Shown here: piece after piece, positions 23,142 through 61,755 of the stretch
Position numbering within the stretch: the stretch's first letter is position 1
Layout of the letters: every line of letters begins with the position of its first letter
Virus record (IMG/VR): IMGVR_UViG_3300047375_000738
DNA: 64,000 nt
Direction: 5' to 3' (one strand)
Source of the DNA: a virus
Taxonomy: Duplodnaviria; Caudoviricetes
The notes under the pieces: generated by a model
What the model was told of the DNA's origin: nothing
Databases searched by the model: none
Seen by the model: only the letters and a program-made list of their open reading frames with translations
Made by a program: the position numbers and the translations under genes

Positions 23142-24327
23142 CGTTACCTACCAGTTTTGCTATCTTAGGGTTGACATCTACAAGTGCAGTATTGCCCTTA
23201 CTGTCAAGTTTACTTATAACATATCTACGCAGATTGTCAACCTCTTTTCGTGAATTTATTCGCCAATTTTTGTTTTTTATTTCTTCAACATGCTGTGTGT
23301 CTATAAACTTACTAACTTGCTGATCAATTGAGTTGTTGGTTAAAAACTGTTTTATGTAGTCTTTTTGTGCATAGCTTAACAAACTAATATTGTAATAGAT
23401 AGGATCGTGGCAAAAATTAACATTTACGCTTTCATGCGGAATACCTACCTTAGTACACCATTCAAGCATGTCAGTACCGCTTAGACAGTTTAACAAGCTC
23501 ACAGTGTATGTTATACGTATGTCAATGTCCTGCTGTAATGCGTGTACAATGTTATCTTCAACACGTTGCCATTTAGCAGGCGGACGTTGGTATTCGTAGT
23601 TAGCGCCTATATCGTCAATACTATAATGCAATTGTATGCGTTTAAACTGTGCAAACTGTTCTAGCAATTTATCTGTTAGTTTAAAGGTACCATTGGTATG
23701 ATATTTAATCCAAATATCTTTTGCTTTGTCTTGTGCAATTAAATGCTCTAGTAATTGGTTGTGTTCTTCGATTAAAAATGGTTCACCGCCGCTCAAATAT
23801 AGTACTTCTGCATTATTGCTTATGTTTAGAATACTATTCCAATTATCCTGCTGTTGTACCCAATTTTTTCCGTAGCTAGGATTTATAACCTGGCCAAATA
23901 ATTCTAATTCAGTAGCTTCCCACTTTTTTGTAAATTCACTATTGCATATCTTACATTTTAAGTTACAATGATTACCTAGTTTAACATCAAAAAGTACAGG
24001 GTTTGGAGCATCAGTTGAATCCATAAGGTGTAAATGTTTGCCGTGTATTTCAAGTTCACGCTGTCTGCGACTTAGTAAGCCTTGGTCTTCTTGGCTAAAG
24101 CATTTGTTGCATCCTGCTGGCCGTTCGCCGTTGATGTATTGCTGTCTTAGTGCTTTGTATTCTGCATTGTTCCAAACAGTTTCTAGTGTTGTATCTTTGT
24201 TGTTTAAATCTAGTTTGTTGCCCTGTTCGTCTGTAAACTCATACAAGTATTCGGCACAGGGTCTTACATAGCCTGTTGCACATACTTCAATTTGTGTCCA
24301 CGGTACAATGCACTTAGGTAATGTCAT
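23131..24327 (-). CDS. Radical SAM protein with N-terminal SPASM/twitch domain
   Basis: CNLKCKIC, YLSGGEPF, HTNGT; N-terminal CIVPW...RPC...GCNKC; start reassigned to MTLPKC. Confidence 0.88.
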   Translation of the reverse strand: MTLPKCIVPWTQIEVCATGYVRPCAEYLYEFTDEQGNKLDLNNKDTTLETVWNNAEYKALRQQYINGERPAGCNKCFSQEDQGLLSRRQRELEIHGKHLHLMDSTDAPNPVLFDVKLGNHCNLKCKICNSEFTKKWEATELELFGQVINPSYGKNWVQQQDNWNSILNISNNAEVLYLSGGEPFLIEEHNQLLEHLIAQDKAKDIWIKYHTNGTFKLTDKLLEQFAQFKRIQLHYSIDDIGANYEYQRPPAKWQRVEDNIVHALQQDIDIRITYTVSLLNCLSGTDMLEWCTKVGIPHESVNVNFCHDPIYYNISLLSYAQKDYIKQFLTNNSIDQQVSKFIDTQHVEEIKNKNWRINSRKEVDNLRRYVISKLDSKGNTALVDVNPKIAKLVGNDET

Positions 24328-25048
24328 ACTTGTCCCGTAAGAAAGGCATAATAACTTTTTCAGAAAAGAGTTTGTGCTGATAATTTCCAGGATGAGGATC
24401 TCTTGGATGGGGGAAACGGTCGTTACAATTTTCAACACACCATCCGTGTTCACTACTCACAGGTAAAAAATATTCAAAATCTATCATGTCTTTGAGATAG
24501 TCGTGCTGGTAATTTGCACGATCATCAGGCCTGTCTTTTAATACTTCATCTGTATAAGTGGTCATGAAATATTTAATATTATAATTTTGTAAAAACCACT
24601 GTGTTCTCAATATGTTTTCATAAGCATATATACTATCGCTTGGATGATTTTGATATCTCTTATACCAATTCTGTGAAAACAAACTATTAAATCCTACACC
24701 AATTAACACCCACCAACTTTGTTGTTGGGCATGTACTTGAGGCCATAAATGAGGACTGGTATCGCTATCAAACGGTTCGCATATTCCTAATCCTTCAGGC
24801 TTATCAATTAAAAATGCTCTACGTTCTTTGCCACTCCACATTATACCAACCAACATGTCTTCAGGGTTAACCCCTGCTTTTAAACATTCGTTTACTTGCC
24901 AAATAACTTTTCGACTAATTAAGTCGTTGCCCGAACTACCCACACCGGTTTGGTAATGAGTGTCATATTGTAGTCTATCTTGTAAATGCACAGGCCAGCA
25001 CATACTGTCAGCACTGAAGCTGCATCCTCCAGTAATTAATACTTTCAT
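24314..25048 (-). CDS. SGNH/GDSL-like protein
   Basis: ITGGCSFS, GSSGND, DPHPGNYQH. Confidence 0.55.
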   Translation of the reverse strand: MKVLITGGCSFSADSMCWPVHLQDRLQYDTHYQTGVGSSGNDLISRKVIWQVNECLKAGVNPEDMLVGIMWSGKERRAFLIDKPEGLGICEPFDSDTSPHLWPQVHAQQQSWWVLIGVGFNSLFSQNWYKRYQNHPSDSIYAYENILRTQWFLQNYNIKYFMTTYTDEVLKDRPDDRANYQHDYLKDMIDFEYFLPVSSEHGWCVENCNDRFPHPRDPHPGNYQHKLFSEKVIMPFLRDKYDIT

Positions 25049-25200
25049 TTGTTATCAATTCTTCCTTTGGTTCCACAATGTGGGCAATGCCAAGTTGTTC
25101 TGTCTGCACAATACTTGTCTTCCATTGTTGCAAACGTAAACCATCCTTTACATTTTATACATGTTAGATGCCAAATAATTTCTTTATGAGCTTTAAACAT
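25045..25200 (-). CDS. Zinc-ribbon microprotein (51 aa, MFKAHKEIIWHLTCIKCKGWFTFATMEDKYCADRTTWHCPHCGTKGRIDNK)
   Basis: Hand-translated; CxxC...CPHC; stop overlaps the next ATG (ATGA). Confidence 0.7.
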   Translation of the reverse strand: MFKAHKEIIWHLTCIKCKGWFTFATMEDKYCADRTTWHCPHCGTKGRIDNK

Positions 25201-25214
25201 AAACATATTTATAT

Positions 25215-25292
25215 TGGTCGGGGATGCAAGATTCGAACTTGCGATCTTCTGCTCCCAAAGCAGACGGATTAACCAGACTTTCCTAATCCCCG
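25215..25292 (-). tRNA. tRNA-Pro(UGG)
   Basis: Cloverleaf; anticodon arm TCTGC-TT TGG GA-GCAGA; GTTCGAAT; encoded CCA. Confidence 0.95.
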
Positions 25293-25294
25293 TT

Positions 25295-25371
25295 TGGTGC
25301 GCCCGGTAGGACTCGAACCTACGATCTACCCGTTATGAGCGGGGAGCTTTAACCAACTAAGCTACAGGCGC
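25295..25371 (-). tRNA. tRNA-Ile2(CAU, lysidine type) rather than tRNA-Met
   Basis: GCGCCTGTAGCTTAGTTGG...CCCCG-CT CAT AA-CGGGT...CACCA resembles alphaproteobacterial Ile2; all Ile codons in the upstream leader are AUA. Confidence 0.85.
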
Positions 25372-25375
25372 AATT

Positions 25376-25449
25376 TGGCATCGGTGCAGGGAGTCGAACC
25401 CCGGCTTTCAGTTTTGGAGACTGACGTGCTACCGTAACACTTCACCGAC
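25376..25449 (-). tRNA. tRNA-Trp(CCA)
   Basis: TCAGT-CT CCA AA-ACTGA; G discriminator; encoded CCA. Confidence 0.95.
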
Positions 25450-25486
25450 AAAAAAAGCCCCTAATAAAATTAATTACTAGGGGCTT
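25450..25486 (-). terminator. Intrinsic terminator (attenuator) directly 5' of tRNA-Trp
   Basis: AAGCCCCTAG-loop-TTAGGGGCTT; U7 tract at 25456-25450. Confidence 0.9.
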
Positions 25487-25514
25487 GTTGAAATAACTTT
25501 TTAAAAAGTCACAT

Positions 25515-25577
25515 TCAAGACGTACCCCGGTTATTCGGTGGCCAATATATTATACATATTGATATAGTCTTGAGCAT
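25515..25577 (-). CDS. Attenuator leader peptide MLKTISICIIYWPPNNRGTS (20 aa)
   Basis: SD AAGGA 8 nt before ATG; codons ATA-TCA-ATA-TGT-ATA-ATA-TAT-TGG-CCA-CCG; terminator/antiterminator pair downstream. Confidence 0.85.
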   Translation of the reverse strand: MLKTISICIIYWPPNNRGTS

Positions 25578-25604
25578 GTTAAAATTCCTTATTTCTTACG
25601 TTCT

Positions 25605-25612
25605 TATTTATA
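25605..25612 (-). promoter_or_regulatory. T4-type late promoter upstream of the leader peptide
   Basis: Exact TATAAATA. Confidence 0.75.
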
Positions 25613-25614
25613 TA

Positions 25615-25820
25615 AAATGATAGGTTGGACTCTGTGAATACCAACAACCCCTTTGTAGAGCCACGCTCAAAAACAGGGAGCTTCATATTAAACGGTTACG
25701 TCTAAAAATACAACTTCGTATCTCTACGCTCTTGCATTGCCACTACAGCTATGAACCAAGTTACAACCTCTACGGATTGCCATTCCTTGCACTATCTAAC
25801 TTAGGATATCTCCTAACTTA
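25615..25820 (-). ncRNA. Candidate structured ncRNA (~200 nt), family unknown
   Basis: No convincing ORF; own promoter; long-range helices GATAG/CTATC, GCAATCC/GGGTTGT, GTAGAG/CTCTAC, TTCATA/TATGAA. Confidence 0.5.
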
Positions 25821-25827
25821 TGTACTT

Positions 25828-25856
25828 AATATAACAGCCTTTACTACCATTGTCAA
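25828..25856 (-). promoter_or_regulatory. Sigma70 promoter driving the ncRNA, leader and tRNA unit
   Basis: TTGACA-N17-TATATT. Confidence 0.8.
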
Positions 25857-25871
25857 CCACTTTTTTGCATT

Positions 25872-26075
25872 TTATTTAAAATTCTTTTCAGTTCCGTCAG
25901 TTATTTTCTTTGCTAATCTGTATGGGAGGAACCCAAACATAAAAGGAAAAAATGCATGAATAATTCCTGTGATAAAAACTAATAGTGCTATACATGCAAA
26001 ATATACGGCATAGAAAAGATGCTCAAAATATGTTGTGCTTGCTTTCTGTAAATGCTTAAAATCAAATATTTTCAT
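25872..26075 (-). CDS. DUF6356-like small membrane protein
   Basis: HL...TYFEH...IIHAFFPF pattern. Confidence 0.6.
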   Translation of the reverse strand: MKIFDFKHLQKASTTYFEHLFYAVYFACIALLVFITGIIHAFFPFMFGFLPYRLAKKITDGTEKNFK

Positions 26076-26090
26076 ATGATTCCTTTGTTA

Positions 26091-26165
26091 TGGTAGTCCC
26101 TACGGGAGTCGAACCCGTCTTTCAAGGTTGAAAACCTGGCGTCCTAACCGATAGACGAAGGGACC
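26091..26165 (-). tRNA. tRNA-Glu(UUC)
   Basis: GGTCCCTTCGTCTATCGGTTAGGAC; loop TT TTC AA; encoded CCA. Confidence 0.9.
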
Positions 26166-26170
26166 AAGTT

Positions 26171-26245
26171 TGGCTGGAACGGTAGGACTCGAACCTACAA
26201 TCACTTGTACCAAAAACAAGGGCATTACCATTATGCTACGTTCCA
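26171..26245 (-). tRNA. tRNA-Gln(UUG)
   Basis: CTTGT-TT TTG GT-ACAAG; U1-A72; encoded CCA. Confidence 0.93.
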
Positions 26246-26256
26246 TTGCCATTAAA

Positions 26257-26340
26257 TGGTGCGGATGGAGAGACTCGAACTCTCACGCCGTGAAGCACAG
26301 GTACCTAAAACCTGCGTGTCTACCATTCCACCACATCCGC
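26257..26340 (-). tRNA. tRNA-Leu(UAG)
   Basis: CAGGT-TT TAG GT-ACCTG; long variable arm; encoded CCA. Confidence 0.93.
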
Positions 26341-26342
26341 TA

Positions 26343-26418
26343 TGGTGCCTGTTGAGAGACTTGAACTCCCGACATGATGCTTACAAAGCACCTGCTCTAC
26401 CAGCTGAGCTAAACAGGC
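26343..26418 (-). tRNA. tRNA-Thr(UGU)
   Basis: GGTGC-TT TGT AA-GCATC; encoded CCA. Confidence 0.93.
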
Positions 26419-26419
26419 T

Positions 26420-26788
26420 TTATTTATTTCGACCTTTAAATGTGTCTGTCTGTGAATGACAGTTAGGACACAACAGTCGGAGATTACTTGGCACATTGTT
26501 CTTATTGTTGCCATCTATATGATCGCACTCTAATACAATGTCTTTGCCGTTATGCTTGCTAATACCACAGCACTCGCAAGTGTAACCTCTTTCACGGGCT
26601 AAGTACCCGCTTTTGTCTTTAATCCAACCTGGAATGTTATTACCCCAAGTATAGTCTTCGTTAAGCCATCTGGTAATTCTGGCTTCTCTTGTGGCAGCAC
26701 CTTGGCAAGCATTGTTACAATACTTGTTAGTGTTTTGCCTAACCCATACATTCTCTTTGCCGCAGTGTAAACAGTTATAAGTTTTCAT
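26420..26788 (-). mobile_element. Free-standing HNH homing endonuclease inserted in the tRNA cluster
   Basis: LECDHIDGNNKNNVPSNLRLLCPNCHSQT; own GATAAATA motif; flanked by a duplicated tRNA-Thr 5' end. Confidence 0.85.
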
Positions 26789-26816
26789 TGGTGTAATACC
26801 TCCAATGTATTTATCA

Positions 26817-26858
26817 CTGCTCTACCTTTTCTGCACCAGCTGAGCTAAACAGGCTTTA
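26817..26858 (-). pseudogene. Duplicated 5' fragment of tRNA-Thr with a 9-nt insertion
   Basis: 23-bp direct repeat 26836-26858 = 26400-26422; the next 10 nt of the tRNA are displaced to 26817-26826. Confidence 0.85.
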
Positions 26859-26930
26859 TCTTTTTACTCTACAAATTGGACAAAAATCATTATGATCCAA
26901 TTCAAATTTACATTCAGGACATTTATTCAT
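26856..26930 (-). CDS. Zinc-finger microprotein (24 aa, MNKCPECKFELDHNDFCPICRVKR)
   Basis: Hand-translated; CPEC...CPIC; AGGA upstream. Confidence 0.6.
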   Translation of the reverse strand: MNKCPECKFELDHNDFCPICRVKR

Positions 26931-26951
26931 AAAAATACTTATCCTGTATCT

Positions 26952-27042
26952 TGGCGGGCAGCCAGGGATTCGAACCCTGGGAACGCTATTAACGTTCGTC
27001 CGCTTAGTAGGCGGGTGCTTTAAACCACTCAGCCAACTGCCC
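26952..27042 (-). tRNA. tRNA-Ser with unusual ACU anticodon
   Basis: CCCGC-CT ACT AA-GCGGA; long variable arm; G discriminator; encoded CCA. Confidence 0.88.
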
Positions 27043-27047
27043 GTATT

Positions 27048-27266
27048 CTATTCAGTAGGAAACTCTACTACCGTATCGTCATCATTACTAACTATTGTTA
27101 GCATGGGTCTACTGTTGTTGTTATTTGCTGCTTCGTCTTCTTCTAACAGCTCTTCTAGTATGTCTGCAACTTGTTCATCTTCGAAGTGCAAATACTTTTC
27201 AATAATATCTAAACGGCTATCAATCTTATACAGCAATTCTAATATTTCATCAGCTTTAAAACTCAT
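27048..27266 (-). CDS. Hypothetical acidic protein
   Basis: ORF track. Confidence 0.6.
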   Translation of the reverse strand: MSFKADEILELLYKIDSRLDIIEKYLHFEDEQVADILEELLEEDEAANNNNSRPMLTIVSNDDDTVVEFPTE

Positions 27267-61449: not shown

Positions 61450-61755
61450 AGAGTGGCACTTCTGTTGCTAGGCAGTACCCGCCCCCACATACCCTTAGGC
61501 TGCTAATGCCATTTCTGGCGCATAATTGTTATTTGCAATTATAAAGTTTGACCAATAACGCAGTCATCCGGTTAACTCCACTTCACTTTCACACCTGTCG
61601 ATCCTAGTTCTGCCCCATCATAAACATACGACTTGCGGCTTTCGGCCCTTGTCCTATGCACAGGAAAGTAGGTGCATCTACTCTCATATGTTTATGGTGG
61701 AGCAGCGCGGTACTGCCCCGCGGTCCAGTATGTGTCTACGTTGCTTCAACGTCAA
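61450..61755 (-). ncRNA. ssrA: Circularly permuted two-piece tmRNA; tag (A)ANNNYAPEMALAA
   Basis: Acceptor piece ends GCTGCTCCACCA (61695) with T-loop GGCAGTA; IVS 61617-61694; coding piece starts GGGGCAGAACTAGGATCGAC (61616); G3-U70 pair; tag ORF 61495-61536. Confidence 0.93.

Follow-up and report, generated by a model that had tools for sequence, protein, structure and literature searches.

A divergent manA-type RNA of a marine T4-like phage, probably a free-standing gene placed ahead of a tRNA attenuator

We describe a stretch of about 205 nt in a 64,000-nucleotide piece of viral DNA, hereafter the window, that is a real, non-coding and intricately folded RNA. It occupies positions 25821-25614 on the minus strand; we infer its ends, as we do its abundance, placing the 5' end 7 nt past the -10 element of its promoter and the 3' end at the last position aligned by Rfam. 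As judged from the alignment to Rfam family RF01745, from a covariance model of its own clade (R1) and from covariation, the RNA belongs to the manA class, and we consider it highly probable that it is a free-standing gene of a marine T4-like phage whose product acts in trans. The family is already known, and a preprint on manA cages exists already. What is new here is a well-sampled marine clade that lies below the Rfam cut-off, a quantified body of evidence for a free-standing gene, the retention of contacts of the assembly type, and the fusion of such an RNA to a tRNA attenuator.

Folded as a single sequence, the stretch is modestly more stable than its shuffled counterparts (-57.3 vs -47.8 kcal/mol, z -2.3), and the case for a structured RNA therefore had to rest on homologues. 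The motif GGUAU ... UCC in the loop of hairpin P9 was used as a search pattern and retrieved from IMG/VR canonical manA RNAs as well as near-identical copies of the window RNA. A clade-specific pattern retrieved more loci, and one metagenome scan contributed an additional 70 contigs, several of them named marine. Together, the pattern scans of IMG/VR and metagenomes yielded 114 loci with 53 distinct cores in 76 distinct neighbourhoods. Note that loose patterns gave many chance matches, so that about 80 of 119 in one scan were filtered by extra motifs and the model, and most matches of the first clade-specific scan likewise needed this treatment. The exact core of the window RNA recurs in 12 loci, whose flanks are of at least four kinds. 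Neither blastn of the region nor megablast of the surrounding 12 kb against 50,697 phage records returned anything useful, and among eight IMG/VR loci with relatives of the DUF6071 gene (24314-25048), some of which carry tRNAs, none carries the RNA. Among 185,579 species genomes the clade pattern gave a single match, at positions 561-709 of L244 (JALXAX010000056.1, a MAG labelled Thiotrichaceae); this 23-kb MAG contig is most likely a phage contig that was binned with a bacterium.

First, 30 distinct sequences were aligned with MAFFT alone; of the 53 pairs in the RNAalifold consensus for this alignment, 35 show compensatory changes. Helices were also fixed on the window sequence, the covariance model R1 was built from the seven closest relatives, and this model was used to align 36 sequences (alignment A3). 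In A3, where the fit to the model inflates pairing counts somewhat and the MAFFT/RNAalifold result serves as independent control, 97.0% of cells form standard pairs, a share that falls to 75.2% when partners are shuffled and to 35-44% when they are displaced by 1-3 columns. Both partners have changed in 52 of 60 pairs, a count that 0 of 500 shuffles reach, and all 13 helices carry such both-side changes. The first-pass annotation had proposed a structured, promoter-driven non-coding RNA of about 200 nt and had set covariation among homologues beforehand as the test of this proposal; the covariation is strong, and the proposal is upheld.

The RNA begins with a hairpin right at its inferred 5' end, P0 (25820-25797; all coordinates of RNA elements refer to the minus strand), which has an outer part of 3 bp and an inner part of 6 bp and in which 9/9 pairs change on both sides. 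The closing helix P1 (25796-25792 with 25623-25619; four of five pairs covary) encloses the whole multi-helix core. Within it, P2 (25789-25786 with 25760-25757) carries hairpin P3 (25780-25763), the six pairs of which all covary and whose loop L3 contains GUAGAG, and P4 (25755-25750 with 25687-25682) closes a junction of the three hairpins P5 (25749-25739, loop GUAGU), P6 (25736-25709, with a 3x3 internal loop and a GAGA tetraloop) and P7 (25705-25688, loop UAACC). For P4 to P7 together, 22 of 23 pairs covary, and the residues of the internal loop and the GAGA tetraloop of P6 are invariant in the clade. The P8 arm (25678-25648; helices 11-12 of the covariation alignment) consists of an outer helix of 4 bp and an inner 4-bp hairpin, and P9 (25645-25624) holds the most conserved motif of the family, GGUAU ... 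UCC. Several pairings that had been drawn by eye on the window sequence reappear in this fold, namely GATAG/CTATC as P1, TTCATA/TATGAA as P4, GACG/CGTT as the inner part of P7 and GCTC/GAGC as the inner P8 hairpin, each of them backed by covariation. Others gave way to it: the 5' strand of the proposed GCAATCC/GGGTTGT helix makes the local hairpin P3 instead, its supposed distal partner being invariant, and GATAC/GTATT is displaced by the long arm P6, where 9/9 pairs covary. Of the proposed helix GAATG/TATTC, three pairs do not vary and a fourth is not maintained.

No open reading frame is conserved among the homologues, which bears out the earlier remark that the transcript holds no credible ORF. 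A small protein encoded by the 35-codon ORF 25686-25579, or by another short ORF, has next to no chance of being the product of this stretch; an ATG ORF does overlap the 3' half of the RNA, but ORF position, frame and length vary among the homologues, five members have no ATG ORF at all, and the substitutions are compensatory in the helices rather than synonymous.

Upstream of the RNA a sigma70-type early promoter is found at 25856-25828 (minus strand), with the -35 element TTGACA at 25856-25851, a 17-nt spacer ending in TG, and the -10 element TATATT at 25833-25828. The near-consensus TTGACA-N17-TATATT that had been noted before is thus present, with 11 of 12 consensus positions matched in addition to the TG extension. 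Nine such near-consensus promoters occur in the window against 1.45 expected, and 0 of 100 shuffles reach this number; the phage evidently uses host-type early promoters. In 69 of 75 neighbourhoods the promoter is present with an unchanged spacing to the RNA.

At gathering cut-offs Rfam reports nothing for the stretch, and the first-pass annotation had treated it as an unclassified RNA, unlike tmRNA, RNase P, SRP, T-box or a group I intron core and merely analogous to manA; that it lies outside all known families does not hold. With E-value reporting, the Rfam manA model RF01745 aligns end to end, from 25816 to 25614 and over model positions 1-192 of 192, at 45.7 bits (E = 4.7e-10 in a search of 1951 nt and 7.5e-11 in one of 311 nt). 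The gathering cut-off of 55.2 bits is reached neither by the window RNA nor by other members of its clade, which score 29.7-54.5 bits, and from the list of a 66-kb E-value search with RF01745 the identical core in L019 is absent. Scoring in the reciprocal direction with R1 gives 274 bits for the window RNA, 104-276 bits for 47 clade loci, 45-72 bits for five intermediates and 15.8-44.7 bits for canonical manA, all of them over the full length; with the Rfam model, canonical loci score 119-176 bits and the intermediates 48.5-61.9. Three loci pass the Rfam cut-off and also score 51-72 bits on R1, with Rfam and R1 values of 56.4 and 72.4 bits for L052, 61.9 and 66.9 for L051, and 55.9 and 51.4 for L047; the corresponding values for L010, a canonical manA, are 118.7 and 44.7. 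Since these intermediates score on both models, the RNAs studied here form a divergent manA clade and not a new class. On sequence and model grounds, the window RNA is thus a divergent, uncatalogued branch of the family itself, and the Rfam score cut-off is the sole formal point on which it falls short.

The structural comparison is in line with this assignment. The helices follow one another and nest just as in the Rfam manA consensus, from P0 and P1 through P2-P3 and P4 with P5/P6/P7 to P8 and P9, and every helix of the manA layout has compensatory changes within the clade. The unpaired motifs of manA are all present, with AGUG (after P1) and GAAU near P1-P2, the GUGGUG loop, the ACCA loop and the GGUAU...UCC loop of P9, as are a GNRA loop on P6 and complementary loops L5 and L7. 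Most of the clade has a matched change in the GUGGUG and ACCA loops, with A for G in L5 and U for C in L7, so that L5 reads GUAGU where canonical manA has GUGGU, and L7 reads UAACU or UAACC in place of ACCA. Further differences are a P6 lengthened by the invariant 3x3 internal loop below the invariant GAGA tetraloop, a shorter loop of the inner P8 hairpin, and the genomic setting, which in the clade is a promoter-RNA-terminator unit or a tRNA array and not a 5' UTR. Clade and canonical manA alike are found in T4-like phages of marine bacteria.

The tRNA cluster of phage T4 contains small stable RNAs, species 1 and 2 (rnaC/rnaD), which are non-coding, co-transcribed with the tRNAs and released by processing. 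The manA-type RNA of the window would share with them the character of a stable non-coding RNA co-transcribed with tRNAs in a T4-like phage, but most of its copies in the clade lie outside tRNA clusters. GOLLD and ROOL, large ornate phage RNAs that are reported to form RNA-only multimers (10.1101/2024.12.08.627333), are likewise phage-borne structured RNAs often found near tRNA genes, but their length is several hundred nucleotides and their folds are unrelated. Their Rfam models gave no match in the window at the gathering cut-off and none at E <=10 within 25150-27100.

A 681-aa cyclase of the window shares 51% identity with its counterpart in Methylophilales phage Melnitz and 34% with the one in Pelagibacter phage HTVC008M. 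The two phages belong to the Kyanoviridae, and the window can thus be placed as a marine T4-like phage of that circle. Methylophilales phage Melnitz has no match to R1 or RF01745. In HTVC008M (NC_020484.1, 5037-5223, plus strand; L240 1488-1693) there is a weak full-length manA-like match of 25.9 bits with RF01745 and 16.9 bits with R1, which overlaps the hypothetical gp008 just upstream of ssb; if real, it would place a manA-type RNA in a cultured pelagiphage.

The neighbourhoods of the RNA differ from what its filing in Rfam would suggest. For the Rfam type Cis-reg one expects a 5'-UTR position before a protein gene, but in 46 of 70 neighbourhoods an intrinsic terminator follows directly, 9-13 nt past the closing helix P1. 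In 15 terminators that were compared, the sequences are unrelated between loci, while the 3' part of the RNA is invariant. Antiterminator pairing between the last 70 nt of the RNA and the terminator arms was no better than with shuffled arms (mean z -0.15, 15 loci), and every full-length minimum-energy fold contains the terminator hairpin. Taken together, unrelated sequences, no excess complementarity and a hairpin that always forms identify these as plain terminators and not as expression platforms. In five neighbourhoods the RNA has no promoter and starts about 4 nt past the CCA end of a tRNA-Gly. A rough check of canonical or intermediate copies gave a promoter in 27 of 31 and a nearby terminator in 15 of 31. 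No protein partner is conserved beside the RNA. The first-pass annotation had placed the RNA at the head of an attenuated tRNA unit, but as a defining context this does not hold, as a tRNA lies within 400 nt downstream in only 11 of 76 distinct neighbourhoods and the RNA most often has a terminator of its own. Promoter, terminator, tRNA-adjacent copies and varied flanks all argue for a free-standing module and not for the leader of a particular gene.

A number of individual loci deserve mention. In L010 (2970-3257, minus strand) a canonical manA lies directly between two tRNA genes of an array, and a wcaG RNA is found on the same contig. Past the terminators, relatives show an ATAAATA box and then a gene that looks structural, with a freshwater-2 RNA (RF02980) as leader. 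In related phage contigs this forms part of an island of non-coding RNAs (L124 2121-2669, minus strand; also L123, L051, L029 and L054), in the order glutamine riboswitch, small ORF, manA-type RNA with terminator, ATAAATA box and freshwater-2 RNA, the last being the leader of a gene that starts MGRP. A PHROG search with the genes behind the RNA in these loci gave weak matches to structural proteins, and tblastn found no homologues of the downstream genes in the window. Another group of loci has no terminator (L019; also L111, L192, L166, L211, L289, L302 and L307), and here the manA-type RNA is followed by a conserved, ORF-free stretch of about 230 nt (L019 3906-4140), 47 nt of which are 94% identical to part of the permuted tmRNA of the window (61639-61684). 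This stretch may be a tmRNA-derived piece or a second non-coding RNA; a partial second tmRNA-like match is present in L172.

In the window itself, the genes around the RNA, among them eight tRNAs and a permuted tmRNA of the alpha type, all lie on the minus strand. Directly behind the RNA stands TATAAATA, the T4-type late-promoter consensus (25612-25605, minus strand), followed by a 20-codon leader ORF (25577-25515, minus strand) that is preceded by a Shine-Dalgarno sequence, is separate from the RNA and belongs to the downstream attenuator. The first terminator behind the RNA is at 25486-25455 (minus strand), 5 nt before tRNA-Trp, and downstream of it are the genes for tRNA-Trp, tRNA(CAU) and tRNA-Pro (25449-25215, minus strand). 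An immediate terminator is absent from the window and from four diverged variants, L266, L281, L191/L231 and L277. In these five the order behind the RNA is TATAAATA, short leader ORF, terminator and tRNA genes, and TATAAATA at the junction of RNA and leader is kept in five of five. The leader ORFs of L191, L266, L281 and L277 are related to that of the window but diverged, and they vary with the tRNAs behind them, which agrees with a leader-peptide attenuator at this position. In L277 (about 1950-2300) a Lys/Ile-rich leader of 23 codons precedes tRNA-Lys and tRNA-Ile, and in L191 (3150-3545) a leader with His and Trp codons precedes tRNA-Trp and tRNA-His. A second TATAAATA is located at 25205-25213 (minus strand) in the window, after tRNA-Pro and before a 53-codon zinc-ribbon-like ORF (25206-25045).

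We read this layout as two modules placed end to end, a manA-type RNA and then an attenuator/tRNA unit, the second of which probably has a late promoter of its own. Note that TATAAATA is not enriched across the window (7 occurrences vs 6.9 expected), so that the copy at the junction is a putative promoter. The 200 nt that separate the early promoter from the tRNA attenuator are then explained as a module in its own right whose terminator has been lost.

The most direct alternative is a cis-acting riboswitch or leader, in which the fold senses a metabolite or a condition and sets the expression of the attenuator and the tRNA genes. Rfam and the original study (Weinberg et al. 2010, PMC2864571), in which manA was put forward as a candidate riboswitch of 5' UTRs, file the family as probably cis-regulatory, the fold is complex enough for an aptamer, and in the window and the four variants no terminator divides the RNA from the downstream unit, so that for the window a role in cis towards attenuator and tRNA genes keeps some probability. 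Metabolite riboswitches with terminator platforms also have a complex conserved fold past a promoter, often with an intrinsic terminator next to it, but they differ in the points that matter here: a conserved antiterminator pairing is missing, the terminators that end most neighbourhoods offer no alternative pairing to the RNA, and their sequences are unrelated although its 3' part does not change. What lies downstream also varies, from structural genes with a freshwater-2 leader of their own to tRNAs and other ORFs, five copies sit directly behind a tRNA and a canonical one between two tRNAs, and the variants that lead into tRNAs keep TATAAATA between RNA and leader. Control of a neighbouring gene seems absent because the relatives are mostly units of promoter, RNA and constitutive terminator, some of them cut from tRNA arrays, and a riboswitch is accordingly improbable.

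Two further roles in cis have an even slighter likelihood. In processive antitermination of the HK022 put or EAR type, the fold would modify RNA polymerase to pass terminators, and the promoter-proximal position of the RNA, with terminators usually downstream, would suit such a function. There is also a precedent, as EAR, the epsC motif of the 2010 survey, was reportedly regarded as a riboswitch at first, before it proved to be an antiterminator. However, some copies lie behind a tRNA and have no promoter of their own, the genes past the terminators have late-promoter-like ATAAATA boxes and their own leaders, and neither a boxA-like element nor the two-hairpin layout of put is present; in the window, moreover, antitermination would defeat the codon-sensing attenuator directly downstream. 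Equally slim are the prospects of a 5' stabilising or processing domain of a tRNA precursor that protects the early transcript from 5'-end-dependent decay or guides its maturation. It would account for the hairpin at the inferred 5' end and for the co-transcription with attenuator and tRNAs seen here, but 65 of 76 neighbourhoods have no tRNA within 400 nt, and about 200 nt under covariation far exceed what a protective hairpin needs.

A free-standing RNA gene raises the question of what its product does, and here the recent structural work on manA offers a lead. In vitro, manA RNAs are reported to form decamers and an icosahedral cage of 60 subunits, as observed by cryo-EM (Ren et al. 2026 preprint, 10.64898/2026.07.01.735769). 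The assemblies are built from pentamers and held by kissing loops L5-L7' and L8-L9', while another variant uses L5-L7', L3-L8' and GNRA-receptor contacts of L6; manA was reported as the first natural RNA-only icosahedral cage, without biological context (10.64898/2026.07.01.735769). The helix numbering used here coincides with that of the preprint, because L6 is the GNRA loop. Loop residues were read from the model-aligned columns. The central pair of L5 and L7 is G-C in canonical manA, A-U in 27 clade sequences, G-U in L094 and L051, and A-C in the subclade of the window, so that the evidence for an L5-L7 contact comes from one covarying position, and the A-C mismatch suggests that this contact is weakened in the window subclade. 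L3 is complementary to the 3' side of P8 (GTAGAG/CTCTAC in the window). This pairing had originally been drawn as one of the interrupted long-range helices and stands as a long-range complementarity, which other subclades keep with different sequences; in a comparison of 10 groups the duplex energy of own pairs was -4.8 kcal/mol vs -3.7 kcal/mol for cross pairs (permutation p 0.017). The partner of L3 overlaps the 3' strand of the inner P8 hairpin, and the two pairings are therefore mutually exclusive. Both the L5-L7 and the L3-P8 complementarity are equally compatible with intramolecular and with intermolecular pairing. The kept loop complementarities and the invariant GAGA tetraloop and internal loop of P6 would thus fit self-assembly, but do not prove it.

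From these observations the following course of events can be proposed for the window. Host RNA polymerase with sigma70 would start transcription at the TG-extended promoter 25856-25828. As the RNA has no terminator of its own here, the early transcript would run on into the leader-peptide attenuator and, upon read-through, into the tRNA genes, and the RNA would be freed by processing in the AU-rich linker. The folded RNA would most likely act in trans as an RNA particle, early in infection. By analogy with the cryo-EM structures of manA, protomers might be held together by loop-loop pairing (L5-L7 and L3-L8) and by docking of the GNRA loop. What is known of cage formation comes from in vitro work on other manA sequences, described in a preprint; we give this assembly step slightly less than an even chance.

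manA has been an orphan riboswitch candidate since 2010. The clade described here adds biological context, with dozens of natural variants in marine T4-like phages that are either free-standing genes driven by early promoters or cut out of tRNA arrays, and it is a branch that standard Rfam annotation misses. Free-standing genes that keep loop complementarities of the assembly type argue against the cis-regulatory label, and the covarying sequences of the clade are at hand for tests of assembly and function. A bolder generalisation, which we put forward as a speculation with the odds clearly against it, is that manA-class RNAs are expressed early by the phage and, inside the infected cell, assemble by themselves into particles or cages based on pentamers, and that their filing as riboswitches is wrong for the family as a whole. 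If this were true, the fact that in the window the RNA is co-transcribed with a codon-sensing attenuator and tRNA genes would suggest that it helps the phage to take over translation, for example by sequestering a host factor that targets tRNAs or ribosomes.
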